From the IMG/VR virus record IMGVR_UViG_2547132269_000002, positions 1 to 11,368 of that record: 11,368 nucleotides of DNA; one strand, 5' to 3'. The translations under genes and the position numbers were made by a program. Numbering within the stretch: position 1 is the stretch's first letter; each line of letters begins with the position of its first letter. Below are positions 1 through 11,368 of the stretch, one piece after another. Source of the stretch: a virus (lineage: Duplodnaviria; Heunggongvirae; Uroviricota; Caudoviricetes). The notes beneath the pieces are model-generated. The model saw nothing but the letters and a program-made list of their open reading frames with translations, was not told where the DNA came from and did not search any database.

Positions 1-265
1 GCGATAATTTTACTCATCATCCTTCACATCAGGCCCTGTAGACAGAGTGGTGATTACTTCTGGAGTGGATTCAGATTAAACATCTCATTGCTAATGTTTG
101 AGGTTAAGCATCTGGCGCGCGGTAAGCGGTTGCGTTGAAATAAGAGCCAGTCCATTACAAATTTCATCAAGCGTTATTGGTAAGGGTGATAATTATGAGA
201 TACCTCTTCACTAAGAGTAATCTTAAGGGTAATGTGTAACCTCACTTTTTAATACGGAGGTTGTA

Positions 266-490
266 ATGTTAGAGAATTATTTCCCTTCAGGAATAGGTGC
301 TCAGCCTGTAACTCAAGCTCAAAAACAGAGGGTTATAGCTGTTCAAGCTGCCCTTGAATTAGTTAAGGCCTCACTTTCTTCTGCAGGTGGTCAGGCTACA
401 AGTGCAAAATTTGAACAGGAATTAAAAGCAGCTATTGGCTTAATTGAACCATTAGCCGATGCCATTCAGAAAGCAATCAGCAAAGAATAA
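266..490 (+). CDS. Small hypothetical protein (74 aa), AT-rich moron-like gene, predicted mostly helical, no signal peptide or TM segment
   Basis: ATG at 266 preceded by GGAGG at 256-260 (5-nt spacer); TAA stop at 488-490. Composition clearly more AT-rich than downstream phage genes. Followed ~105 nt downstream by an intrinsic terminator. Function not recognised. Confidence 0.6.
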   Translation: MLENYFPSGIGAQPVTQAQKQRVIAVQAALELVKASLSSAGGQATSAKFEQELKAAIGLIEPLADAIQKAISKE

Positions 491-595
491 ATAAACCACC
501 TGCATTTTGTTTTATTTCCCAACTAACGGGTGTAATAATCTTAATGTTTCCCGTGGATAGATAAGACAATAAGTATTCACCTTCAAGATATAAAC

Positions 596-622
596 GGGCC
601 TCGCTAATGCGAGGCTTTTTTA
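596..622 (+). terminator. Rho-independent terminator (stem gcctcgc / gcgaggc, loop taat, then TTTTTT)
   Basis: Perfect 7-bp inverted repeat at 598-604 and 609-615, immediately followed by a 6-T run at 616-621. Orientation fits termination of + strand transcription from the small gene at 266..490. Confidence 0.6.
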
Positions 623-656
623 CGCATTGTAAGCGTGCACCAAAGAGGGGATATAA

Positions 657-1007
657 ATGCCACCACGAACCCCAAAAGCCTGCCGTTTTCGCGGTTGCCG
701 CAATACCACTACAGATACGTCAGGCTATTGCGAAAGCCACAAAAGCGAGGGCTGGAAGCAATACAAGCCAGGACAATCCCGTCATCAGCGCGGTTATGGT
801 TCGAAGTGGGACAGTATCCGCGCGGGTGTCCTGAAGCGTGACAAAGGCCTGTGTCAGTTATGTCTGCGTGCTGGTGTGGTGCGTGAGGCGAAAACCGTTG
901 ACCACATCATCCCTAAAGCGCATGGCGGCACTGATGCCGACTGTAATCTGCAGAGTCTGTGCTGGCCGTGTCATAAGGCGAAGACGGCCCGTGAACGACT
1001 TAAGTGA
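657..1007 (+). CDS. HNH homing-type endonuclease, phage packaging-associated (116 aa)
   Basis: ATG at 657 with AGAGGGG upstream. Cys pairs CRFRGC and CQLC...CWPC (zinc-finger-like). HNH core DHIIPKAHGG...NLQSLCWPCHKAKT with His83 codon at 903-905. Sits directly upstream of the small and large terminase genes, as in HK97-like cos phages. Confidence 0.9.
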   Translation: MPPRTPKACRFRGCRNTTTDTSGYCESHKSEGWKQYKPGQSRHQRGYGSKWDSIRAGVLKRDKGLCQLCLRAGVVREAKTVDHIIPKAHGGTDADCNLQSLCWPCHKAKTARERLK

Positions 1008-1033
1008 TAATAATTCTCAACTGTCTGAGGGGA

Positions 1034-1093
1034 GGGGCGGGTCAAATCTCTGTGACCTGACGTCTTCCGGACTGCCCGCCCCATCGTTTTTTT
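1034..1093 (+). other. GC-rich inverted repeat (ggggcggg ... cccgcccc) with internal palindromes, followed by TTTTTTT; candidate terminator or cos/packaging-recognition region
   Basis: Arms at 1034-1041 and 1075-1082 are exact reverse complements separated by a 33-nt loop containing the palindromes gacgtc (1059-1064) and tccgga (1066-1071). A 7-T run at 1087-1093 lies 4 nt after the stem. Located in the HNH to TerS intergenic gap. Confidence 0.35.
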
Positions 1094-1132
1094 ATACCCG
1101 CGAAAAATGAAATTTAACCAGGAGTGCCGCAT

Positions 1133-1627
1133 ATGGCTGGAACGGCGGGGCGTTCCGGGCGTCGCCCCAAGCCAACGGCGCGCAAGGCGCTGGCCGGAAA
1201 CCCCGGAAAGCGAGCCCTGAACAAAGATGAACCCGTTTTTACGCCCATCAAAGGTGTTGAGCCACCGGAGTGGTTCGCTGAAGAAGAGCTCCCTCTCGCC
1301 ACGATCATGTGGCAACTGACAACCAAAGAACTCTGCGGTCAGGGCCTGCTGTGCGTGACTGACCTCGCAGTGCTTGAGCGGTGGTGCGTAGCCTATGAGT
1401 TCTGGCGACGTGCTGTGAAAAATATTGCCAGACAGGGCAACACCATCACCGGTGCAATGGGCGGCATGGTCAAAAATCCGGAGCTGACCGCCAAAAAAGA
1501 ACAGGAGTCCGAGATGAGCAGTACGGGGGCAATGCTCGGACTCGACCCCAGCAGCCGCCAGCGTCTGATTGGCCTGGCGGGGCAGAAGAAAGCCACTAAC
1601 CCGTTTCTGAAAATTATCGAATCATGA
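1133..1627 (+). CDS. Terminase small subunit, P27 family (about 164 aa from ATG 1133)
   Basis: ATG at 1133 preceded by AGGAG at 1120-1124; the in-frame GTG at 1124 used by the ORF track has no spacing for an RBS. Basic N-terminus GRSGRRPKP, then [15 protein letters not shown] and PPEW motifs typical of P27-type small terminases. Stop TGA at 1625-1627 overlaps the ATG of the next gene. Confidence 0.85.
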
Positions 1628-3357
1628 GCCGGAAATCTTACCCCAACGTAAATGCTGCCAATCAGTATGCCCGGGATGTCGTGCGCGGAAAGATTGTGGC
1701 CTGCCAGTTTGTGATTCAGGCCTGCCAGCGCCATCTTGATGACCTGATGGCGGAAAAAAGTAAGTCGTTTCGTTACCGCTTCGACAAGGACCTGGCTGAA
1801 CGGGCCGCCAAATTTATTCAGCTGTTGCCGCACACCAAGGGTGAGTGGGCATTCAAGAGGATGCCCATCACGCTGGAGCCGTGGCTGCTCTTTGTGATCT
1901 GCTGCGCGTTTGGCTGGGTCAATAAAGGCTCCCGGCTGCGCCGCTTCCGGGAGGTGTATACCGAAATCCCCCGTAAGAACGGCAAATCGGCAATCTCTGC
2001 CGGTGTCGCCCTGTATTGTTTTGCCTGTGATAACGAGTTCGGCGCGGAAGTGTATTCCGGTGCCACGACGGAGAAACAGGCATGGGAAGTCTTTCGTCCG
2101 GCAAGACTGATGTGTAAACGCACACCCATGCTGACGGAAGCGTTCGGGATTGAGGTTAACGCCTCAAACATGAATCGTCCGGAGGATGGCGCGCGGTTTG
2201 AACCGCTGATCGGTAACCCCGGTGATGGTTCATCACCCCACTGTGCGGTGGTGGATGAATATCACGAGCACGCCACCGATGCGCTTTACACCACGATGCT
2301 TACCGGGATGGGGGCGCGACGTCAGCCACTGATGTGGGCCATTACTACTGCCGGGTACAACATTGAGGGGCCGTGCTACGACAAGCGACGGGAAGTTATC
2401 GAGATGCTCAACGGGTCGGTACCCAACGATGAACTGTTCGGGATCATCTATACCGTTGACGAAGGCGATGACTGGACCGACCCGCAGGTGCTGGAAAAAG
2501 CTAACCCGAATATTGGCGTGTCGGTTTATCGCGAATTTTTGTTAAGTCAGCAGCAGCGTGCGAAAAATAACGCCCGTCTGGCAAACGTCTTTAAAACAAA
2601 ACACCTCAATATCTGGGTGTCGGCGCGTTCGGCGTATTTCAACCTGGTGAGCTGGCAGAGCTGCGAGGATAAATCACTGACCCTTGAGCAGTTCGAGGGG
2701 CAGCTGTGCATTCTGGCCTTTGACCTGGCGCGTAAGCTGGATATGAACAGCATGGCGCGACTTTATACCCGCGAGATTGACGGTAAAACGCATTACTACA
2801 GTGTGGCCCCGCGTTTCTGGGTACCGTATGACACGGTGTACAGCGTCGAGAAAAATGAAGATCGACGGACAGCCGAACGCTTTCAGAAATGGGTGGAAAT
2901 GGGCGTTCTGACCGTTACCGATGGTGCGGAGGTGGATTATCGCTACATCCTCGAGGAGGCCAAAGCGGCGAACAAAATCAGCCCGGTCAGTGAGTCACCC
3001 ATCGACCCCTTCGGGGCGACCGGGTTGTCACATGACCTTGCTGATGAAGACCTGAACCCCATCACTATCATTCAGAACTACACCAACATGTCCGACCCGA
3101 TGAAAGAGCTGGAAGCGGCAATTGAATCGGGGCGCTTTCATCATGATGGCAATTCCATCATGACCTGGTGTATCGGCAACGTGGTCGGCAAAACCATTCC
3201 GGGTAACGATGATGTGGTGAAGCCCGTCAAAGAGCAGGCGGAAAACAAAATCGATGGTGCAGTTGCGCTGATTATGGCGGTTGGCAGAGCCATGCTGTAC
3301 GAGAAAGAAGACACGCTGTCTGACCACATTGAGTCCTATGGGATCCGCTCGCTTTAA
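1624..3357 (+). CDS. Terminase large subunit (577 aa), ATPase plus nuclease
   Basis: Walker A-like P-loop IPRKNGKS at nt 1969-1989. Walker B-like VVDEYHE at nt 2248-2268. Length and position immediately after TerS, with ATGA overlap. Intact ORF. Confidence 0.95.
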
Positions 3358-3368
3358 CTGAGGTAATT

Positions 3369-3551
3369 ATGATCATGCTGATTCTCGCGCCTTTGGTGGG
3401 CGTGCTGGGGGCGCTTTTGCTGGCGTATGGTGCCTGGCTGATTTATCCCCCGGCGGGGTTTGTTGTTGCTGGGGCGTTGTGCCTGTTCTGGTCGTGGCTG
3501 GTGGCGCGATATCTCGACCGTACACAGTCGTCTGTCGGCGGAGGTAAATAG
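3369..3551 (+). CDS. Small hydrophobic protein (60 aa) with two predicted transmembrane helices, function unknown
   Basis: ATG at 3369 with GAGG 7 nt upstream. Two hydrophobic stretches ([26 protein letters not shown] and [16 protein letters not shown]) separated by PPAG. TAG stop at 3549-3551 overlaps the GTG start of the next ORF. Confidence 0.6.
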
Positions 3552-4909
3552 TGTTCTTTTCGGGATTATTTCAACGAAAAAGTGACGCACCGGTGACCAC
3601 GCCAGCAGAGCTGGCGGATGCTATCGGGTTGTCCTACGACACCTATACCGGAAAGCAGATCAGCAGCCAGCGGGCCATGCGACTGACGGCGGTTTTTTCC
3701 TGTGTCAGGGTGCTGGCGGAGTCGGTCGGGATGTTGCCCTGCAACCTGTATCACCTGAACGGCAGCCTGAAGCAGAGAGCCACTGGCGAACGTCTGCATA
3801 AGCTGATCTCCACGCATCCCAATGGCTATATGACGCCGCAGGAGTTCTGGGAGCTGGTGGTCACCTGTCTGTGCCTGCGGGGAAACTTTTACGCCTACAT
3901 TGAGCTGAAACGTCCGGCAGGTGGTGCGCAAAATAAACTGGCCACCGAGCATAAAGAAGCGTTTGTGGGCTTCCTGCGTAAAGGCCGTGAAGATGGTCTG
4001 CGCGATCTGGAGCGCAAGGCATTACAGGTGGGCACCGATGAAGACGGTGGCTATGCCGTGCCGGAAGCGCTGGATCGCAACATTCTGACCTTGCTGAAAG
4101 ATGAAGTGGTGATGCGCCAGGAAGCCGCGGTGATCACCGTTGGCGGTTCCGACTACAAAAAACTGGTGAATCTGGGCGGCACGGCTTCCGGATGGGGTGG
4201 CGAGACTGACGCGCGCTCCCAGACTGCCACCTCCAGACTGGGGCTGATTGAACCTTTCATGGGGGAAATCTACGGTAACCCGCAGGCCACCCAGAAAATG
4301 CTGGATGATGCCTTTTTCAACGTGGAGGCCTGGATCAACAGCGAGCTGGCAACCGAATTTGCCGAACAGGAAGAAATTGCCTTTACCACCGGCGATGGTA
4401 CCAAGAAGCCGAAAGGGTTCCTGGCGTATGAATCCACTGATGAAACCGATAAGGTCCGGGCGTTCGGCAAACTTCAGCATATTGTATCCGGCGACGCGAC
4501 TGCGGTGACCGCAGACGCCATTATCAAACTGATTTACACGCTGCGAAAGGCACACCGCACCGGCGCGAAGTTCATGATGAACAACAACAGCCTGTTTGCC
4601 ATCCGTTTGCTGAAAGACAGCGAGGGTAACTATCTGTGGCGTCCGGGGCTGGAACTGGGGCAGCCGTCCTCTCTGGCGGGTTACGGTATCGCTGAAAACG
4701 AACAGATGCCGGATATCGCCGCTGATGCGAAAGCCATTGCATTTGGTAACTTCAAACGGGGTTACACCATCGTTGACCGTATCGGCACCCGCATTCTGCG
4801 TGACCCGTACACCAATAAACCGTTTGTCGGTTTTTATACAACCAAGCGCACCGGCGGGATGCTGGTCGATTCGCAGGCCATCAAACTGCTGAAGATTGCT
4901 GCGGCGTAA
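3551..4909 (+). CDS. Chimeric ORF: portal protein N-terminal fragment (~125 aa) fused in frame to an HK97-fold major capsid protein (~325 aa); probable deletion product
   Basis: GTG start at 3551 with GGAGG at 3540-3544. Residues ~40-120 carry the portal N-terminal signature (AMRLTAVFSCVRVLAESVGMLP ... HPNGYMTPQEFWEL ... LRGNFYAYIE). From about nt 3910-3950 the sequence switches to capsid-type motifs (EAFVGFLRKG, GGYAVPE, TGDGTKKPKGFL, LRDPYTNKPFVGFYTTKRTGG, AIKLLKIAAA). No prohead protease or scaffold gene between them. Confidence 0.8.
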   Translation: MFFSGLFQRKSDAPVTTPAELADAIGLSYDTYTGKQISSQRAMRLTAVFSCVRVLAESVGMLPCNLYHLNGSLKQRATGERLHKLISTHPNGYMTPQEFWELVVTCLCLRGNFYAYIELKRPAGGAQNKLATEHKEAFVGFLRKGREDGLRDLERKALQVGTDEDGGYAVPEALDRNILTLLKDEVVMRQEAAVITVGGSDYKKLVNLGGTASGWGGETDARSQTATSRLGLIEPFMGEIYGNPQATQKMLDDAFFNVEAWINSELATEFAEQEEIAFTTGDGTKKPKGFLAYESTDETDKVRAFGKLQHIVSGDATAVTADAIIKLIYTLRKAHRTGAKFMMNNNSLFAIRLLKDSEGNYLWRPGLELGQPSSLAGYGIAENEQMPDIAADAKAIAFGNFKRGYTIVDRIGTRILRDPYTNKPFVGFYTTKRTGGMLVDSQAIKLLKIAAA

Positions 4910-4916
4910 TCATTCA

Positions 4917-4936
4917 GGGGCGCGGAACCGCGCCCC
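4917..4936 (+). terminator. GC-rich hairpin just after the capsid stop (ggggcgcgg aa ccgcgcccc), weak T-tract; possible partial terminator or mRNA-stabilising stem-loop
   Basis: 9-bp perfect inverted repeat at 4917-4925 and 4928-4936 with a 2-nt loop, 8 nt after the TAA at 4907-4909. The downstream run ctgttctg is not a canonical U-tract. Confidence 0.4.
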
Positions 4937-4958
4937 CTGTTCTGACGGGTGAAGAATC

Positions 4959-5159
4959 ATGATCCTGAAACAAGATCTGAAATGGTCACCGGACGGTATG
5001 CGTGTTGAGGTCATTCGGGCCGGTGAGTATGACGACGGGGCGCTTCCTGCCCGGGTGCAGGAGATTGCACTTCAGGCCGGGTTAGCAGAGCGCGGAACCA
5101 GTGCAAAAAGCAGTAAAGCGGCAAAAGAGAAAAAAGCCACGACCAGTAAAGAGGGCTGA
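4959..5159 (+). CDS. Hypothetical small protein (66 aa) with Lys/Ser-rich C-terminal tail
   Basis: ATG at 4959, weak RBS. Sits between the capsid and head-tail connector genes. C-terminus SAKSSKAAKEKKATTSKEG. Stop 2 nt before the next gene start. No family recognised. Confidence 0.5.
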   Translation: MILKQDLKWSPDGMRVEVIRAGEYDDGALPARVQEIALQAGLAERGTSAKSSKAAKEKKATTSKEG

Positions 5160-5161
5160 GT

Positions 5162-5485
5162 ATGCTTCTGACAATGGAAGAGATTAAAGCCCAACTCCGG
5201 CTGGATGAGGATTTCGATGCTGATGACCGCCATCTGCAACTGCTGGCCTGTGCGGCGCAAAAGCGGACGGAAACGTATCTGAACCGGAAGCTCTATGCAC
5301 CGGATGAATCCATTCCGGACAGCGATCCGGACGGGCTGCACCTGCCGGATGATATTCGTCTGGGGATGCTGATGCTTATCAGCCATTTTTACGAAAACCG
5401 CTCGTCGGTTACGGAAGTGGAAAAACTCGACATGCCGCAGAGTTTTGGCTGGCTTGTCGGCCCGTACAGGTACTTTCCGCAATGA
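5162..5485 (+). CDS. Head-tail connector protein, gp6-like (107 aa)
   Basis: ATG at 5162 with AAGAGGG upstream. N-terminal pattern LTMEEIKAQLRLDEDFDADD...LQLLACAA resembles gp6-like connector/DNA-packaging proteins. Follows the capsid gene. ATGA overlap with the next gene. Confidence 0.75.
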   Translation: MLLTMEEIKAQLRLDEDFDADDRHLQLLACAAQKRTETYLNRKLYAPDESIPDSDPDGLHLPDDIRLGMLMLISHFYENRSSVTEVEKLDMPQSFGWLVGPYRYFPQ

Positions 5486-5892
5486 AAATTCGTCAGGCGC
5501 AGATCAGCGCAACCTACATTCTGCCGGACCCCGGTGAACTGAATAAACGCGTCCTGATCCGCCTGCGGGTGGATATGCCCGCGGATAACTTTGGCGTGGA
5601 GCCTCAATACCCGGTTACGTTCTGGACATGGGCGAAGGTTATCCAGACCAGTGCCACCACCTGGCAGGAAACCGCGCAGACCGGGGACGCCATCACCCAT
5701 TACATCACCATTCGTTACCGCCGGGGGATCACCGCTGATTATGAGGTGGTCTGTGATGACAGTGTGTACCGGGTGAAACGTCAGCGCGATCTGAACGGGG
5801 CGCGGCGCTTTCTGCTGCTGGAGTGTACGGAGCTGGGCGAATTTACGCAGAGTCACGGAGGCAGCAATGGCGACTCCCTTTTTTCACGTTGA
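5482..5892 (+). CDS. Head-tail joining (head closure / adaptor) protein (136 aa)
   Basis: Pattern RVLIRLRV ... FWTWAKVIQ ... AQTGDAITHYITIRYRRGI ... YRV ... LLECTE fits the phage head-tail joining family. Position after the gp6-like gene. Confidence 0.75.
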   Translation: MKIRQAQISATYILPDPGELNKRVLIRLRVDMPADNFGVEPQYPVTFWTWAKVIQTSATTWQETAQTGDAITHYITIRYRRGITADYEVVCDDSVYRVKRQRDLNGARRFLLLECTELGEFTQSHGGSNGDSLFSR

Positions 5893-6373
5893 TGTTCAGC
5901 AGCCCGCGGAGATGCGCTTTAACCGCGCCCGTGTCCGGCGGGCGTTTGTCACGATTGGTCAGCGTCATATGCGTGATGCCCGTCGGCTGGTGATGCGCCG
6001 TGCGCGGTCGGCACCGGGTGAAAACCCCGGTTATCAGACCGGACGCTTGGCTCGTTCGATTGGTTACATGGTGCCGGGAGCCAGTAAAAAGCGAGTCGGT
6101 TTTATGACACGCATTGCCCCTAACCAGCGCAACGGGAGGGGGAACCGGATGATCTCTGGTGACTTCTATCCGGCGTTTCTGTTTTTTGGTGTCCGGGGAG
6201 GAGCAAAACGTCGTCACAGTCATCATCGTGGTGCATCCGGTGGCAGCGGCTGGCGACTGGCTCCACGTAATAACTTCATGGTGGAAACGCTTGAAAAGAA
6301 CCGCAGCTGGACACGCTATTTTCTGGCGCGGGAATTACGTAAATCACTGAAGCCGGAGCGACGACGCAGATGA
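5867..6373 (+). CDS. Neck / tail-completion protein, HK97 gp10-like by pattern (168 aa), Arg-rich C-terminus
   Basis: ATG at 5867 with GGAGG at 5857-5861; overlaps the previous gene by 26 nt. Assignment rests on gene order and loose motif resemblance (GYQTGRLARSI, FYPAFLFFG). Confidence 0.5.
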   Translation: MATPFFHVDVQQPAEMRFNRARVRRAFVTIGQRHMRDARRLVMRRARSAPGENPGYQTGRLARSIGYMVPGASKKRVGFMTRIAPNQRNGRGNRMISGDFYPAFLFFGVRGGAKRRHSHHRGASGGSGWRLAPRNNFMVETLEKNRSWTRYFLARELRKSLKPERRRR

Positions 6374-6930
6374 AACTGACGCCTGTTATTGCTGCGCTGC
6401 GTGCCCGCTGCCCGTATTTTGAAAACCGGGTGGCAGGTGCGGCACAGTTCAAAAATCTGCCGGAGGTCGGAAAGCTGAAACTCCCGGCGGCGTATGTGGT
6501 ACCGGGTGATGACTCTCCTGGAGAAAACAAAAGCCAGACCGACTACTGGCAGGAGCTGAAAGAGGGCTTCTCCGTGGTTGTCATACTGAGTAACGGGCGT
6601 GATGAGCGCGGTCAGTTTGCCTCGTATGATGTGGTGGACGATGTCCGGCAGATGCTCTTTAAGGCCCTGCTGAGCTGGAACCCGGAAGCGTGCGGTAACC
6701 CGATTACCTATGACGGCGGCACGCTGCTGGATCTGAATCGTCATGAGCTGATTTATCAGTTCGATTTTTCGGTCATCAGCGAGCTGACCGAAGACGATAC
6801 CCGCCAGCAGGATGATCTGAACAGTCTGGATGAACTGCAAACGCTGGCGATTGATGTTGATTATCTCGAGCCCGGTAACGGGCCTGACGGCGATATCGAA
6901 CATCACACCGAAATAACCCTTCCTTCCTGA
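6370..6930 (+). CDS. Mu gp36/gp37-like tail-associated protein (186 aa) with acidic C-terminal region
   Basis: ATGA overlap with the upstream gene. Lies just upstream of the gp38-like gene and the tail sheath start, as in Mu-like tail modules. Family assignment is by position and loose resemblance. Confidence 0.5.
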   Translation: MKLTPVIAALRARCPYFENRVAGAAQFKNLPEVGKLKLPAAYVVPGDDSPGENKSQTDYWQELKEGFSVVVILSNGRDERGQFASYDVVDDVRQMLFKALLSWNPEACGNPITYDGGTLLDLNRHELIYQFDFSVISELTEDDTRQQDDLNSLDELQTLAIDVDYLEPGNGPDGDIEHHTEITLPS

Positions 6931-6938
6931 GGATCCTC

Positions 6939-7109
6939 ATGTTTGTCAAACCTGTTAAAGGGCGGTCAGTGCCTGACCCTGCCCGCGGCGACCTTTTGCC
7001 CGCCGAAGGGCGAAATGTTGACGAGAACAACTACTGGCTGCGCCGTGAAGCAGCGGGTGATATCCGGCGCGTGAATAAAAAGGTGAACACCGATGACGAT
7101 AAGCTTTAA
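6939..7109 (+). CDS. Small Mu gp38-like protein (56 aa, DUF2635-like)
   Basis: Not in the ORF track (below length cutoff); found by reading the sequence. ATG at 6939 with GAGGA at 6929-6933; TAA stop at 7107-7109. Protein MFVKPVKGRSVPDPARGDLLPAEGRNVDENNYWLRREAAGDIRRVNKKVNTDDDKL. Lies directly upstream of the sheath start codon. Confidence 0.55.
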   Translation: MFVKPVKGRSVPDPARGDLLPAEGRNVDENNYWLRREAAGDIRRVNKKVNTDDDKL

Positions 7110-7224
7110 CACCATTCCGTCGAATACGCTGGTTCCGTTGTTTTATGCGGAAATGGATAACCAGGCGGCGAATAAACACCCGCGCAGAGCACTGGCTGGC
7201 CTTCCGTCACGCATCCGGCACTGA
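7093..7224 (+). pseudogene. Tail sheath gene, N-terminal fragment only (43 codons, ~27 sheath-like then out-of-context tail)
   Basis: ATG at 7093 with AAGGTG upstream. Translation MTISFNTIPSNTLVPLFYAEMDN matches the conserved N-terminus of Mu-type sheath proteins, but a TGA stop follows at 7222-7224. The ~450-aa sheath body is absent. Confidence 0.6.
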
Positions 7225-7574
7225 ACAATGCACCGGCGGTGAAAAGCACGGTTGACCTGCCAACGTGGGAAGAACTGACTGACATTCGCGACACACTGAA
7301 TACGGCAATTGATAAGGAGTTGTCCCGTACAACCAGTGATGCGCTGTTTCTGGCGCTGCGCCGGGTGAAAGCAGATCTGAATGCGGATATCAACACGCGC
7401 CTTGAACAGTCTGCACGGATCATTCAGCGCACGCCGGATGAGGTTTTACCCGCGCTGGTGCTGGCGGCGACCTGGTTTGATAACGCGGCGCGTGACGGGG
7501 ACATTATCCGGCGTAATGCCATTACGCATCCCGGCTTTGTGCCGGTGATCCCTCTGAAGGTGCCAGTGCAATGA
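7176..7574 (+). pseudogene. 3' remnant of the gene upstream of the baseplate hub (probably Mu gp43/N-like DNA circularisation protein); no ATG start or RBS
   Basis: Frame opens after the TAA at 7173-7175 and runs to the TGA at 7572-7574, which overlaps the ATG of the hub gene (caATGAac). First possible start is a GTG at 7239 with no RBS. 133 open codons against an expected ~400-500 aa for this gene. Confidence 0.5.
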
Positions 7575-8650
7575 ACGATAACGTCACGCTACGGGTAAAT
7601 GGCCGGGAGTGGAATGGCTGGACATCGGTGCGCATCGGTGCCGGTGTTGAACGACTGGCGCGGGATTTCAGTGTGGAGATCACTCGCCAGTGGCCGGGAG
7701 ATGAGGGTATCACCACGCTTCAGCCGCGCATTAAAAACGGTTCAAAAGTGGAAGTGCTGATTGGTGATGAGCTGGTGATCACCGGCTGGGTGGAGGCGAC
7801 TCCCGTTCGTTACGATGCCCGTTCGGTCAGCACCGGTATTGCCGGACGTAGTCTGACGGCTGACCTGATTGACTGTGCAGCCGAACCGACACAGTTTAAC
7901 GGACGCTCGCTGGTGCAGATTGCGCAGGCGCTTGCTGCGCCTTTCGGCATTGAGGTGGTGAACAGCGGTGCGCCGTCGGGTGTTATTCCTGATGTTCAGC
8001 CTGATCACGGTGAAACGGTGATTGAGGTAATCAACAAAATACTCGGTCAGCAGCAGGCGCTGGCTTACGACGACCCGTACGGCAGGCTGGTGATTGGCGG
8101 TATTGGCTCAACGCGGGCACATACCGCGCTGGTACTTGGGGAAAACATCCTTTCCTGTGATACGGAGAAGAGTATCCGGGAGCGGTTTTCTGTTTACCAG
8201 GTGGCGGGGCAGCGTGCCGGAAACGACGATGATTTCGGTGAGGCCACCACCACCGCGCTGCGGGCCCGCACAGAGGACGCATTTATTGCCCGTTACCGTC
8301 CGATGTATATCAGGCAGACAGGGCAGCCCACGGGGGCAGGCTGTATTGCGCGTGCTGACTTTGAAGCCCGACAACGGGCGGCGCGGACGGATGAAACCAC
8401 CTATGTGGTGCAGGGCTGGCGACAGGGTAACGGTACGCTGTGGCAGCCCAACCAGCGGGTGATTGTCTTCGATCCGGTCTGTGGTTTCGACAATACCGAA
8501 CTGCTTGTCTCGGAAGTCACGTTTACTCAGGACCAGAACGGCACCCTGACGGAAATCCGTGTCGGCCCGCCTGATGCTTATCTGCCTGAACCCGAAGCCC
8601 CCGGCGCGCGGGAAAAGAAAAAAGCCAGAGTACAGGAGGACCCGTTCTGA
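7571..8650 (+). CDS. Baseplate hub protein, Mu gpP (gp44)-like (359 aa)
   Basis: ATG at 7571 overlapping the upstream stop. Size and position match; N-terminal pattern LRVNGREWNGWTSVRIGAGVERLARDFSVEIT. Followed by the gp45-like and gp46-like genes in canonical order. Confidence 0.8.
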   Translation: MNDNVTLRVNGREWNGWTSVRIGAGVERLARDFSVEITRQWPGDEGITTLQPRIKNGSKVEVLIGDELVITGWVEATPVRYDARSVSTGIAGRSLTADLIDCAAEPTQFNGRSLVQIAQALAAPFGIEVVNSGAPSGVIPDVQPDHGETVIEVINKILGQQQALAYDDPYGRLVIGGIGSTRAHTALVLGENILSCDTEKSIRERFSVYQVAGQRAGNDDDFGEATTTALRARTEDAFIARYRPMYIRQTGQPTGAGCIARADFEARQRAARTDETTYVVQGWRQGNGTLWQPNQRVIVFDPVCGFDNTELLVSEVTFTQDQNGTLTEIRVGPPDAYLPEPEAPGAREKKKARVQEDPF

Positions 8651-9198
8651 TGAGGACGATTGAAGCCATGCAGCGACAACTTCTCGGCCTGATTGGGCGG
8701 GCAGTGGTGAAAAGCATCAGTGCCGCCACGAAATGTCAGACCGTGGATGTGTCCCTGATTGCCGGTGAATCCAAAGCCGGGGTTGAACATCTTGAACCCT
8801 ACGGTTTTACCGCAAGGGCAAACAGCGGTGCGGAAGCGGTGGTGTTGTTTCCGGATGGCGACCGTTCTCATGCGGTGGTTGTTACGGTGTCGGACCGGCG
8901 CTACCGCCTGAAAGGGCTGCAGACGGGTGAGGTGGCTGTCTATGACGATCAGGGGCAGTCCGTGACGCTGACCCGGGAGGGGATCGTGGTGGACGGTGCA
9001 GGTAAAACGATCACGTTTCACAATGCGCCTAAGGCACGTTTTGAAATGGACCTGGAGGTGACCGGACAGGTGAAAGACCTGTGCGACTCCGGCGGCACCG
9101 CCATGTCAGCGATGCGGCTTGCCTATAACGGGCATCGTCACAGAGAGAACGGTCAGGGCAGTAACACCGACAAACCTGATAAAGCGATGGAGGCATGA
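8650..9198 (+). CDS. Baseplate spike / assembly protein V, Mu gp45-like (182 aa)
   Basis: TGATG overlap with the hub gene. Pattern GLIGRAVV ... GESKAGVEHLEPYGFTA ... GEVAVYDDQGQSVTL typical of gpV-like spike proteins. Canonical position. Confidence 0.8.
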   Translation: MRTIEAMQRQLLGLIGRAVVKSISAATKCQTVDVSLIAGESKAGVEHLEPYGFTARANSGAEAVVLFPDGDRSHAVVVTVSDRRYRLKGLQTGEVAVYDDQGQSVTLTREGIVVDGAGKTITFHNAPKARFEMDLEVTGQVKDLCDSGGTAMSAMRLAYNGHRHRENGQGSNTDKPDKAMEA

Positions 9199-9623
9199 TG
9201 GAAGTGTGGCTGACGGTGAACGGTAAATGCACCTGCGCCAGCGCACCGCTGGATCCGCTGACCCGCGCCGTGGTGATTTCTCTGTTTACCTGGCGGCGGG
9301 CGGAGCCTGATGACAATGCCGACGTCCCGATGGGATGGTGGGGGGATACCTGGCCTGCGGTACAGAATGACCGTTACGGTTCCCGACTGTGGCTGCTTCA
9401 ACGCAGCAAACTGACCAATCAACTGGTGCAGACGGTAAGGGGGTATATCCGCGAATGCCTGCAATGGATGATTGATGACGGCGTGGTGTCCCGTATTGAT
9501 CTGGATATCCGCCGCACCGGGATTAATGAACTGGGTAACAGTATCACTCTCTGGCGTCGTGACGGACCGGTAATGATTTCTTTTGATGATCTGTGGAGTG
9601 CGATAACGCATGGCGGACAGTGA
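9195..9623 (+). CDS. Mu gp46-like baseplate protein (142 aa)
   Basis: ATGA overlap with the gp45-like gene. Size and position between the spike and J-like genes. Confidence 0.75.
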
Positions 9624-11061
9624 ATTTCAGCGCCCGACGCTGGCAGAAAATATCAGTATGCTCCGTAACGATTTATTCGCCAGGCTGGACGTCAGCGACA
9701 CGCTCCGGCGCATGGATGAAGACGTGCGGGCAAAGGTGTATGCGGCGGCGCTGCATACGGTTTACGGGTACATCGATTATCTGGCAATGAACATGCTGCC
9801 TGACCTGTGCGATGAGTCCTGGCTGGCGCGACATGCTGCGATGAAACGGTGTCCGCGCAAGGGGGCCACGGCTGCCAGCGGGTATATGCGCTGGGAAGGT
9901 GTCAGCGATGGCCTGAAGGTGACCGCCGGGAGTGTTATTCAGCGCGATGACCTGGTTCAGTACACGGCAACTGCCGATGCAACCAGCTCCGGTGGTGTCC
10001 TGCGCGTGCCGATCGCCTGCTCAAGTGCAGGCGCGGTCGGTAACGCTGACGACGGTACGTCATTAATCCTGGTCACGCCGGTTAATGGTCTGCCGTCTTC
10101 CGGCGTGGCAGATACCCTGACAGGTGGATTTGATACTGAAGAGCTGGAAACGTGGCGCGCCCGCGTCATTGAGCGGTATTACTGGACGCCTCAGGGCGGA
10201 GCTGACGGGGACTATGTCGTCTGGGCTAAAGAAGTGCCCGGCATTACCCGCGCATGGACATACCGTCACTGGATGGGAACGGGAACTGTCGGTGTGATGA
10301 TTGCCAGCAGTGACCTGATTAATCCCATTCCGGAAGAATCAACGGAAACGGCAGCAAGACAACATATCGGGCCACTGGCCCCGGTGGCAGGCTCTGATTT
10401 GTATGTGTTCAGGCCGGTGGCGCATAAAGTGGATTTTCATATCCGCGTGACGCCGGACACACCGGAAATACGGGCTGCCATTACCGCGGAGTTGCGTTCG
10501 TTCCTGCTGCGTGATGGTTATCCGCAGGGAGAACTGAAGGTATCGCGTATCAGTGAGGCGATTTCCGGTGCGGCACCGTCATTAACCCGTGTTCATCAGC
10601 GTGCGGATGCCCTGATGCGGGAGCTGGATCCGCGCACCACCACTGAACTGATAAACCGCTGGGAGCGTCTGTGCGGTCTGCCGGATGAATGTATTCCGGC
10701 GGGAACGCAGACCCTTCGCCAGCGTCAGCAACGGCTGGATGCGAAGGTTAACCTGGCGGGCGGCATCAACGAGGATTTTTATCTTGCACAGCTTGCTGCC
10801 CTGGGCAGACCAGATGCCACCATCACGCGATACGACAAAAGCACGTTCACCTGCTCATCGGCCTGTACTGACGCGGTGAATGCGCCAGAATGGCGGTATT
10901 GCTGGCAGGTCAACATGCCAACCACCACCAACACCACCTGGATGACATGTGGCGATCCCTGTGATTCCGCACTGCGTATCTGGGGTGACACCGTTGTCGA
11001 GTGTGTGCTTAACAAACTCTGCCCGTCGCATACCTACGTAATTTTTAAATATCCGGAGTAA
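9610..11061 (+). CDS. Baseplate J-like protein (Mu gp47-like, ~320 aa) continuous with a gp48 / P2 gpI-like tail protein domain (~160 aa) in one 483-aa ORF
   Basis: ATG at 9610; single uninterrupted frame to TAA at 11059-11061. The N-terminal ~320 aa look J-like. From about nt 10560-10620 ([24 protein letters not shown] ...) the sequence resembles the N-terminal region of gp48/DUF2313-type proteins, which are normally a separate downstream gene. Confidence 0.75.
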
Positions 11062-11064
11062 TCC

Positions 11065-11368
11065 ATGCATCGTATAGACACGAAAACCGCGCAGAAGGAT
11101 AAGTTCGGCGCGGGTAAGAACGGTTTTACCCGTGGTAACCCCCAGACCGGCACACCTGCCACCGATCTGGATGATGACTACTTTGACATGTTGCAGGAGG
11201 AGCTTTGCAGCGTGGTGGAGGCATCCGGTGCCAGTCTTGAGAAGACGCGGCACGACCAGCTGCTTACCGCGCTTCGTGCGCTGCTGTTAAGCCGCAAGAA
11301 TCCGTTTGGCGATATCAAATCGGATGGCACCGTGAAAACGGCTCTCGAAAACCTTGGTTTGGGAGAAG
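11065..11368 (+). CDS. Tail fiber protein, conserved N-terminal (baseplate-attachment) domain; 3' end lies beyond the window
   Basis: Not in the ORF track (open at window end). ATG at 11065 with GGAG at 11055-11058. Translation [67 protein letters not shown]..., an N-terminus I recognise from tail fibers of enterobacterial Mu/P2-like tail modules. Confidence 0.75.

Follow-up and report, generated by a model that had tools for sequence, protein, structure and literature searches.

The small membrane protein gene ymfR of an e14-like prophage appears to travel with the portal gene in HK97-type temperate phages

Why should a gene for a small, two-helix membrane protein lie in the head operon of a tailed phage, between the genes for the large terminase subunit (TerL) and the portal protein? 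The question is raised by an 11,368-nucleotide stretch of DNA, IMG/VR virus record IMGVR_UViG_2547132269_000002 (positions 1 to 11,368; here called the window), in which the 60-codon open reading frame (ORF) ymfR occupies this slot. The encoded protein is 100% identical to YmfR of the e14 prophage of Escherichia coli K-12 (WP_000605606.1) and to gp03 of Shigella phage SfII (SfII_03), so that nothing differs at the protein level; its downstream partner in the window is a portal::capsid fusion. The gene and its family are already known and named: RefSeq calls the gene ymfR, SfII_03 is labelled "membrane protein", and ymfR is annotated in E. coli K-12, and in phage genomes such as P27, ST64B, SfII and phiKO2, as either "membrane protein" or "hypothetical protein". 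No functional study of ymfR was found in the literature searched, where full-text mentions were confined to gene lists, among them published lists for e14 excision. Literature searched on small terminase-portal membrane proteins, SfIV, phiKO2/PY54 and telomere phages likewise held no functional data, nor did it describe a strict and wide association of the family with portal genes. An earlier sequence-only reading of the window had treated ymfR as an extra gene inserted beside the head genes and had proposed superinfection exclusion, holin-like or toxin-like functions. Comparison of homologous loci strongly supports a different placement, in which family members form a fixed element of the portal module in many temperate phages of Proteobacteria with HK97-type heads.

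Pooling of all sources, including 119 viral contig stretches found by a degenerate DNA pattern of the family motif, gave 148 loci with a family match; the stretches found by DNA pattern are preselected for the motif and were used for synteny only, not for any claim of conservation. An HK97-family portal gene lies directly downstream in 143 of these loci, and the remaining 5 run out at the edge of the locus. TerL immediately precedes the small gene in 137 of the 148. Six distant matches to the family profile were looked up, and all six fall between TerL and a PF04860 portal gene. Loci in which the two neighbors have separate histories indicate which of them the small gene follows. In SfV, TerL is 97% the same and the portal protein is 28% identical, and the phage carries a different hairpin ORF, of 53 amino acids (phrog_7105), not ymfR. 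In Serratia, TerL is 36% identical and the N-terminal segment of the portal protein (residues 1 to 116) is 64 to 66% identical, and a YmfR homologue is present. In some E. coli prophages, near-identical ymfR and portal genes are accompanied by a different TerL. Over 42 non-redundant loci, identity of the small protein correlated with that of the portal protein (Spearman 0.48; partial correlation given TerL, 0.47) and not with that of TerL given the portal protein (−0.05), although the 861 locus pairs are non-independent and the resulting P values are therefore inflated and indicative only. None of the 861 pairs combined a portal identity of at least 80% with a small-protein identity below 50%. 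The proportion of nonsynonymous sites that differ (pN) in the hairpin core, 0.05 to 0.29, tracks that of the portal N-terminal domain (0.14 to 0.26) and not that of TerL (0.02 to 0.10). On these comparisons the small gene moves with the portal gene, not with TerL, across recombination boundaries. The family is found beside the Mu-like tails of SfII and ST64B and also in phiKO2 and PY54, so that tail type appears immaterial and the linkage is to the head module rather than to the injection module; it is likewise independent of whether the protease is of the S78 or S49 type.

These results speak against the idea of an inserted, moron-like gene. The small gene stands in the portal module in 143 of the 143 loci with enough sequence, and none of the usual marks of a moron was found. 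The terminator-like hairpins of the region lie inside the ORF and are unconserved, and no promoter-like site for ymfR was found by a consensus scan within ~500 nucleotides upstream (the nearest, at 2828-2856, matches 9 of 12 positions). Presence is not sporadic: the gene is present wherever the portal type is present and absent only in other portal lineages. Base composition is not deviant either, with a GC content of 0.58 in ymfR and 0.54 to 0.60 in the adjoining portal sequence. A step in GC content, from 0.51 to 0.58, lies at the TerL/ymfR border, and the composition is level from there into the portal gene.

The family itself is large. YmfR matches phrog_502 ("membrane protein") over residues 1 to 55 with an E value of 2.5e-28, and all 47 of the diverse family members sampled match the same profile. 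Neither YmfR nor these 47 relatives matched any family in Pfam, NCBIfam or PADLOC, the last returning no family at an E value of ≤10. In a database of 5.8 billion proteins, 167 clusters (90% identity) matched at an E value of ≤0.01, and a 21-member family profile searched against 1.84 billion cluster representatives matched 357 clusters (50% identity) at an E value of ≤1e-3. The members range from 26 to 122 amino acids, and mostly from 45 to 110, among the 150 of these 357 clusters that were listed. The core of the family can be written G..G..L[IV]S[YF]GAWL[IV]Y.PAG[YF]I..G...L.WS[YF]..[AS][RK], and the window gene shows the phrog_502 profile, the hairpin of ~60 amino acids with its YGAWLxYPPAG turn, and the overlapping position in the TerL-portal slot that mark a member. 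The region was matched in 1,597 of 5,426 complete E. coli genomes (~30%), and homologues occur in Escherichia, Shigella, Salmonella, Citrobacter, Hafnia, Yersinia, Klebsiella, Enterobacter, Buttiauxella, Mangrovibacter, Scandinavium and Serratia. Named phages with a family member include phiKO2 (gp3), PY54, ST64B (Sb3), phiP27 (product annotated 'putative integral membrane protein'), Yersinia YeP1-3, Marinobacter AS1 and Azospirillum Cd. The proteins Sb3 of ST64B, gp3 of phiKO2 and gp03 of SfII and the phiP27 protein share with the window YmfR the same length, the two-helix pattern and the slot between TerL and portal.

That ymfR is a genuine protein-coding gene is strongly supported by the way in which homologous sequences vary. 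Over 12 loci the ratio of nonsynonymous to synonymous divergence (dN/dS, Nei-Gojobori) was 0.05 to 0.43, with synonymous sites near saturation, and in the hairpin core it was 0.07 to 0.29. The mean pairwise difference at codon positions 1, 2 and 3 was 0.31, 0.21 and 0.53, respectively. The window allele differs from that of K-12 by 5 nucleotide substitutions, all 5 of them synonymous. Only the C-terminal tail evolves in a near-neutral manner, with pN about equal to its synonymous counterpart (pS); the terminal GG[EDK] codons are excepted and are invariant because the same nucleotides form the Shine-Dalgarno sequence of the portal gene. The sequence-only reading had proposed a check of conservation and synteny, with a lack of conservation together with poor coding statistics counting against it; the gene proved to be conserved, with dN/dS well below 1. 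The opposite view, that TerL and portal are separated by a GC-rich spacer with a chance ORF, or by an intrinsic terminator or attenuator, can draw on two terminator-like hairpins inside the ORF, one of them at a place that the SfII record marks as a 'putative terminator', and on the SfV, SfIV and PY54 records, which annotate no gene at the slot. The stem of the first hairpin (3387-3414) is, however, unconserved at the synonymous sites of homologues, and that of the second (3445-3459) is broken in homologues that encode the same peptide by CCA CCC GCT GGG or CCC CCT GCA GGC. The region had no match in Rfam, and a length of ~60 amino acids is kept in homologues from hosts of 50 to 72% GC. Because of the purifying selection and the concentration of variation at third positions, a chance ORF or terminator is refuted by the comparative data and retains next to no probability. 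Since the variation is periodic in the plus frame, two minus-strand ORFs, at 3354-3590 and 3373-3525, were taken for shadows cast by the GC-rich gene on the plus strand.

The geometry of the locus strongly supports the view that ymfR is positioned for translation off the late structural mRNA through coupling to TerL upstream (Table 1). The suggestion that the gene is translationally coupled on both sides was borne out exactly, with GAGG and an ATG just past the TerL stop codon and a stop codon whose last base is also the first base of the GTG that starts the following ORF, and its placement among the late genes was likewise upheld, ymfR sitting in the late structural operon. GAGG or a related motif again follows the TerL stop codon in homologous loci. 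At the other end, the stop codon overlaps the portal start codon in all homologous loci, as TAGTG, TAATG, TGATG or ATGA and usually by 1 to 4 nucleotides, and the last three forms also occur in distant relatives at 57 to 72% GC. Relatives keep a purine-rich context at the end of the small gene (GGAGG, GGGGG or AAGGGGG), and at every locus examined the Shine-Dalgarno sequence and start codon of the portal gene lie inside the last codons of the small ORF. This coupling geometry is kept across hosts from 50% to 72% GC. A programmed −1 frameshift that would fuse YmfR to the portal protein was excluded by a TAA codon of the portal frame at 3545-3547, just before the portal start codon; no conserved slippery site for such a frameshift was found in the end contexts of the loci examined.

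The description of the product as a 60-amino-acid protein with two hydrophobic helices agrees with both hydropathy and structure prediction. Residues 1 to 46 are hydrophobic throughout, with a grand average of hydropathy of 1.22, and the only charges are R47, D50, R51 and K60. AlphaFold2 run on a 47-sequence alignment predicted a helix at residues 2 to 25, a turn at residues 26 to 28 (Y26-P-P28) and a second helix at residues 29 to 56, with a mean predicted local distance difference test score of 77. YmfR is thus predicted to form a helical hairpin inserted in the inner membrane, and by the positive-inside rule its N terminus and basic C-terminal tail are predicted to be cytoplasmic and the YPPAG turn to lie at the periplasmic face; an extra N-terminal MR in the Serratia homologues fits this predicted topology. 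Conservation within the family is highest at the YPPAG turn (consensus YGAWLxYPPAG). In helix 2, G35 is invariant family-wide, and C38, W41, S42 and W43 are invariant among enteric members. The alignment places conserved small residues on one face of each helix, G11/G14/G21 and G35/C38/S42. Four members (P0177, P0196, P0203 and P0241) are tandem duplications of 102 to 122 amino acids with two hairpins and four helices, and one of these, P0203, is located upstream of a portal gene. An AlphaFold2 model of P0196, made without an alignment, also had four helices, with a helix packing too uncertain to interpret (predicted template-modelling score, 0.31). A Foldseek search of the YmfR model against the PDB gave a V-ATPase hairpin subunit as its sole match (E value of 4), a two-helix hairpin being too simple a fold. 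A reading of helix 1 as a cleavable signal peptide or lipoprotein signal was rejected, as there is no basic n-region and the helix holds family-invariant glycines, and by inspection G35-A-L-C38 is not a lipobox.

Table 1. Features of the ymfR locus in the window
Feature	Coordinates	Strand	Basis
TerL, intact, 577 amino acids; stop codon TAA at 3355-3357	1624-3357	+	PF03354 and PF20441; 97-99% identity to SfII/SfV TerL
Shine-Dalgarno sequence GAGG of ymfR, 2 nucleotides past the TerL stop codon, with a 5-nucleotide spacer to the ATG at 3369	3360-3363	+	Sequence reading
ymfR coding sequence, 60 codons and TAG	3369-3551	+	ORF list and translation; identity to K-12 YmfR/SfII_03; phrog_502; dN/dS
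Helix 1 (predicted transmembrane helix 1), residues 2-25, with conserved G11, G14 and G21	3372-3443	+	Hydropathy, AlphaFold2, invariant columns
Terminator-like hairpin inside ymfR, judged incidental	3387-3414	+	Consensus scan
Hairpin turn I25-Y-P-P-A-G30, predicted periplasmic	3441-3458	+	Alignments, AlphaFold2, charge distribution
Another terminator-like hairpin at the YPPAGFVV codons, made up of CCCCCGGCGGGG and a T-rich run; taken as incidental	3445-3459	+	Consensus scan
Helix 2 (predicted transmembrane helix 2), residues 29-46	3453-3506	+	Hydropathy, alignments, AlphaFold2
Basic C-terminal tail R47...K60, sequence-variable, predicted cytoplasmic	3507-3548	+	Tail pN ~ pS; alignment
Shine-Dalgarno sequence GGAGG of the next (portal) ORF, within ymfR codons 58-59	3540-3544	+	Sequence reading
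Stop/start overlap TAGTG; ymfR TAG (3549-3551) shares its G with GTG (3551-3553)	3549-3553	+	Sequence reading
In-frame portal::capsid fusion (portal, residues 1-116; major capsid protein, C-terminal 336 residues); joint at 3899/3900	3551-4909	+	tblastn against SfII; PF04860 at residues 47-120 and PF05065 at residues 166-449; blastn break points

Small genes occupy the same slot in other phages. The SfV-type hairpin of 53 amino acids (phrog_7105) also has two helices and overlaps both the TerL stop codon and the portal start codon, next to a portal protein of a different type. It is ~30% identical to YmfR, with FGMAP where YmfR has YPPAG, and it matches phrog_502 weakly (E value of 5.7e-6) and the A3 profile at 4.7e-6; conversely, 12 of the 47 YmfR-family members also match phrog_7105. 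A direct hhalign comparison of the two families gave a P value of 0.007 and a probability of 5%. Because of the cross-matches between the PHROG profiles a relationship is suggested, and phrog_7105 is probably a distant branch of the YmfR family. In the SfV record (U82619) this 53-amino-acid two-helix ORF is unannotated, at 2289-2450 between TerL and portal, with a phrog_7105 match at an E value of 3e-22, and RefSeq calls its counterpart in an E. coli ST131 prophage a hypothetical protein. The annotated start of the SfV portal gene, at 2392, is probably too far upstream, since similarity begins only at ~2440. In phage lambda, the small gene between the large terminase gene (A) and the portal gene (B) encodes gpW, a soluble protein. 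An identity of YmfR with gpW was rejected: BLASTP gave no alignment at an E value of ≤100, there was no match to the Pfam gpW family, and YmfR is a predicted membrane hairpin.

We tentatively propose that YmfR is a membrane accessory that acts together with the portal protein at the inner membrane, as an oligomer; this is a possible rather than a probable reading. The hairpin would oligomerize in the inner membrane, an idea put forward because of the conserved small-residue faces and the natural tandem-duplicated versions with four helices. The oligomer would then place or nucleate the portal vertex at the membrane, leading to prohead initiation or packaging there, and assembly would be improved by an accessory that not every HK97-type phage needs. 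Such a role would be functionally like that of the viral chaperone gp40 of T4, on which the membrane-bound gp20 portal initiator depends (PMC9958956). In both cases a phage-encoded factor would serve the portal at the inner membrane, the tie of YmfR to the portal being one of genetic linkage only, and the T4 portal lineage differs from that found beside YmfR. In T4, gene 40 and the portal gene are not known to be neighbors.

The leading opposing explanation is that YmfR is a host-directed membrane effector made late in infection, involved in superinfection exclusion, in holin- or antiholin-like timing of lysis or in mild depolarization or toxicity, and that its site next to the portal gene sets only the timing and level of its expression. 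Class II holins and pinholins, such as S68 of phage 21, are small proteins with two transmembrane helices, an N-in/C-in topology, a basic C terminus and glycine-rich faces. YmfR shares with them the small size, the basic C terminus and the glycine faces, and its predicted topology, with two transmembrane helices and both ends inside, agrees with hydropathy, charge distribution and the AlphaFold2 hairpin. It is unlike them in that it lies outside the lysis cassette, matches no holin hidden Markov model (none in Pfam at an E value of ≤10 or in PHROGs at ≤1), has no conserved dual start and is inherited with the portal gene, not with the endolysin. Methionines at positions 1 and 3 occur in the window allele only; homologues begin with MFLIIL, MILTIL or MR, and neither a second methionine nor an intervening basic residue is conserved. 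An intact relative already has a separate and complete lysis cassette, with two holin-family genes, a GH19 endolysin and Rz/Rz1, ~3 to 5 kb upstream of ymfR. HK97 gp15, T4 Imm and P22 SieA are small phage-encoded inner-membrane proteins of superinfection exclusion, which YmfR also resembles in outline; those proteins are encoded by morons or early genes that have promoters of their own, and they are tied to the specificity of injection. Unlike them, ymfR has no promoter signal of its own, conserved terminator or compositional anomaly, lies in a late operon, follows the portal type rather than the lysis or tail and injection modules through phages with Mu-type tails and phiKO2/PY54, and has no PADLOC match; no toxin model was matched either, and for a type I toxin the consensus scan found no minus-strand promoter-like site in 3300-3600 and there was no Rfam match. 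More favorable to an effector is that conservation peaks within the membrane and at the predicted periplasmic turn and not in the tail on the cytoplasmic side, that ymfR is intact in degraded prophages which lack the portal gene, and that the PHROGs category of phrog_502 is 'moron, auxiliary metabolic gene and host takeover'. In a first screen of 392 membrane-protein clones, 65 released D-alanine, the ASKA clone of ymfR among them; this is ambiguous, as the authors suspected leakage or lysis behind some of the first-round clones (PMC10299036). In K-12, ymfR is induced alongside the other e14 genes under SOS conditions and is not reported to be expressed in the lysogen, which argues against an effector (PMC10012262). 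Overall, exclusion, holin-like and toxin-like functions are not favored on the comparative evidence, and we regard an effector of this kind as somewhat unlikely.

It is also conceivable that the ORF serves as a device for translation, setting the level of portal synthesis by termination and reinitiation with a peptide of little activity of its own, or, in a variant, that cotranslational insertion of the hairpin brings the polycistronic mRNA and the nascent portal protein to the membrane. The embedding of the portal Shine-Dalgarno sequence and start codon in the last codons of the small ORF fits such a device, and in HK97 the TerL stop codon directly overlaps the portal start codon, so that the small ORF would preserve a coupling that already existed. 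Hundreds of 50%-identity clusters share, however, an invariant YGAWLxYPPAG motif and conserved glycines, neither of which a spacer or generic targeting peptide would need, and the dN/dS of the hairpin core is unexpected for a mere spacer; we consider both variants improbable. Lower still in probability is a hydrophobic protein carried in the virion, loaded at the portal and released to help DNA cross the inner membrane as ejection or pilot proteins do. The linkage between the small gene and the portal gene would suit such a role, and the glycine-rich helix faces could form an oligomeric channel. An unbroken hydrophobic stretch of 46 residues would nevertheless be expected to insert into the membrane of the producing cell, an injection route should track the tail type, yet the family spans Mu-type tails and phiKO2/PY54, and no virion proteomics listing YmfR was found in the literature searched.

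Several observations weigh against the proposed portal-linked accessory itself, beyond the non-independence of the locus pairs given above and the restriction of the literature on ymfR to gene lists. HK97, RcapNL, Acinetobacter fEg-Aba01 and Moraxella Mcat12 have a portal protein of the same family, with TerL adjoining the portal gene and no small ORF between them, and because such phages exist the gene must be dispensable for HK97-type assembly in general. Constraint lies in the membrane and the predicted periplasmic turn, and the only sizeable cytoplasmic part, the C-terminal tail, is near-neutral; a direct and specific contact with the cytoplasmic portal protein is awkward to reconcile with so unconstrained a tail. 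The coinheritance could stem merely from the overlap of the 3' end with the ribosome-binding site and start codon of the portal gene, which would hinder recombination between the two. The small gene is intact where the portal gene has been destroyed, in the window and in K-12 e14, which fits a portal-independent role as well. Finally, one of the tandem-duplicated members (P0196, locus L158) stands in an atypical context with no recognizable TerL or portal gene, flanked on one side by a 320-amino-acid protein without a Pfam match and on the other by a 100-amino-acid protein followed by an S78 protease.

A small hairpin gene before the portal gene is thus frequent, not universal, and is accessory rather than a core requirement of HK97-type heads. 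Burkholderia vB_E253 has an unannotated family member (E value of 3e-13), Vibrio K269 a weakly matching protein of 67 amino acids (E value of 2e-6), and Pseudomonas PMG1/D3 a 54-amino-acid two-helix hairpin, Orf3, that the family profile does not recognize. A broader proposal, which we regard as rather doubtful, is that an unstudied class of HK97-type temperate phages builds or operates its portal vertex at the membrane with a dedicated oligomeric two-helix protein, perhaps a ring of hairpins matched to the portal. The class would take in YmfR (phrog_502), the SfV-type hairpin (phrog_7105) and possibly D3/PMG1 Orf3 as positional analogues. If this were true, membrane-assisted portal initiation, so far a peculiarity of T4 with its gp40, would be common among HK97-like phages. 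If YmfR does act with the portal protein, the assembly of HK97-type heads, membrane independent in the textbook view, would gain a membrane step. If the host membrane is the target instead, ymfR would be an unusually conserved late-expressed effector. Across hundreds of phage lineages the comparisons show a portal-module component that is conserved and under selection, not cargo, and in either case the gene offers a cheap and well-defined target for study because K-12, ASKA and Keio strains and inducible SfII and ST64B lysogens exist.

The portal proteins of 43 loci begin with a short aromatic or hydrophobic motif (3551-3575 in the window), such as MFFSGLF or MGLFS.L or, in HK97-like portal proteins, WWSRF after a few residues. 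No N-terminal feature specific to hairpin-carrying phages was found among these 43 loci, the aromatic motif being present also in portal proteins without a hairpin gene.

By sequence comparison the window is a prophage of the e14/SfII/SfI/SfIV/SfV/ST64B/P27 type, whose head is of the HK97 type and whose tail is of the Mu type. The gene had been described as lying between terminase and portal, which needs correction for the window itself, where the downstream ORF is not an intact portal gene but the portal::capsid fusion of Table 1. Relative to SfII, a 1,731-bp deletion removes the rest of the portal gene, the prohead protease gene and the capsid N terminus. At 7174/7175 a further 5,006 bp are missing by comparison with SfII; this deletion runs from just past the start of the tail sheath gene to the inside of the DNA-circulation gene and leaves a 43-amino-acid sheath stub (7093-7224) and a 111-amino-acid ORF (7239-7574). 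At 9610-11061 the genes for baseplate J (Mu gp47-like) and a gp48-like protein are fused into one 483-amino-acid ORF by a deletion of ~170 to 180 bp, with a break near 10557-10572 and a 16-bp overlap at the joint. Because of these three deletions the window is a defective, e14-like prophage, less eroded than e14 of K-12. An HNH endonuclease gene (PF01844; 657-1007) lies immediately upstream of a small terminase gene of the Terminase_4 (P27) family (TerS; 1124-1627), and the order HNH-TerS-TerL is shared with distant loci that carry the hairpin gene.

The comparisons also exposed annotation errors, in which the gene is either left out of the record or misnamed. It is unannotated in the SfV, SfIV, PY54 and Burkholderia vB_E253 records. 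In ON470603, ON470584, ON470580 and PQ793804, a ymfR homologue goes by the name 'head-tail joining protein W', apparently a positional misannotation. E. coli/Shigella-type ymfR regions were also found in JAEWTL010000102 (a metagenome-assembled genome named 'Bacillota bacterium'), in Edwardsiella hoshinae NBRC 105699 and in Enterococcus phage Efm 3-10 (OR844959, 1,764 bp). YmfR is 94 to 100% identical in the three records, and TerL is 98 to 99% identical in the first two; these look like contamination or misbinning and not a true host range. In Shigella flexneri SFBU0723, a second prophage copy (L012) has a ymfR gene at 4001-4216 that is frameshifted after about residue 27 to give an aberrant ORF of 71 amino acids, while the flanking TerL, portal N-terminal and capsid C-terminal segments align at 98 to 99% identity; ymfR can therefore be lost by point mutation.

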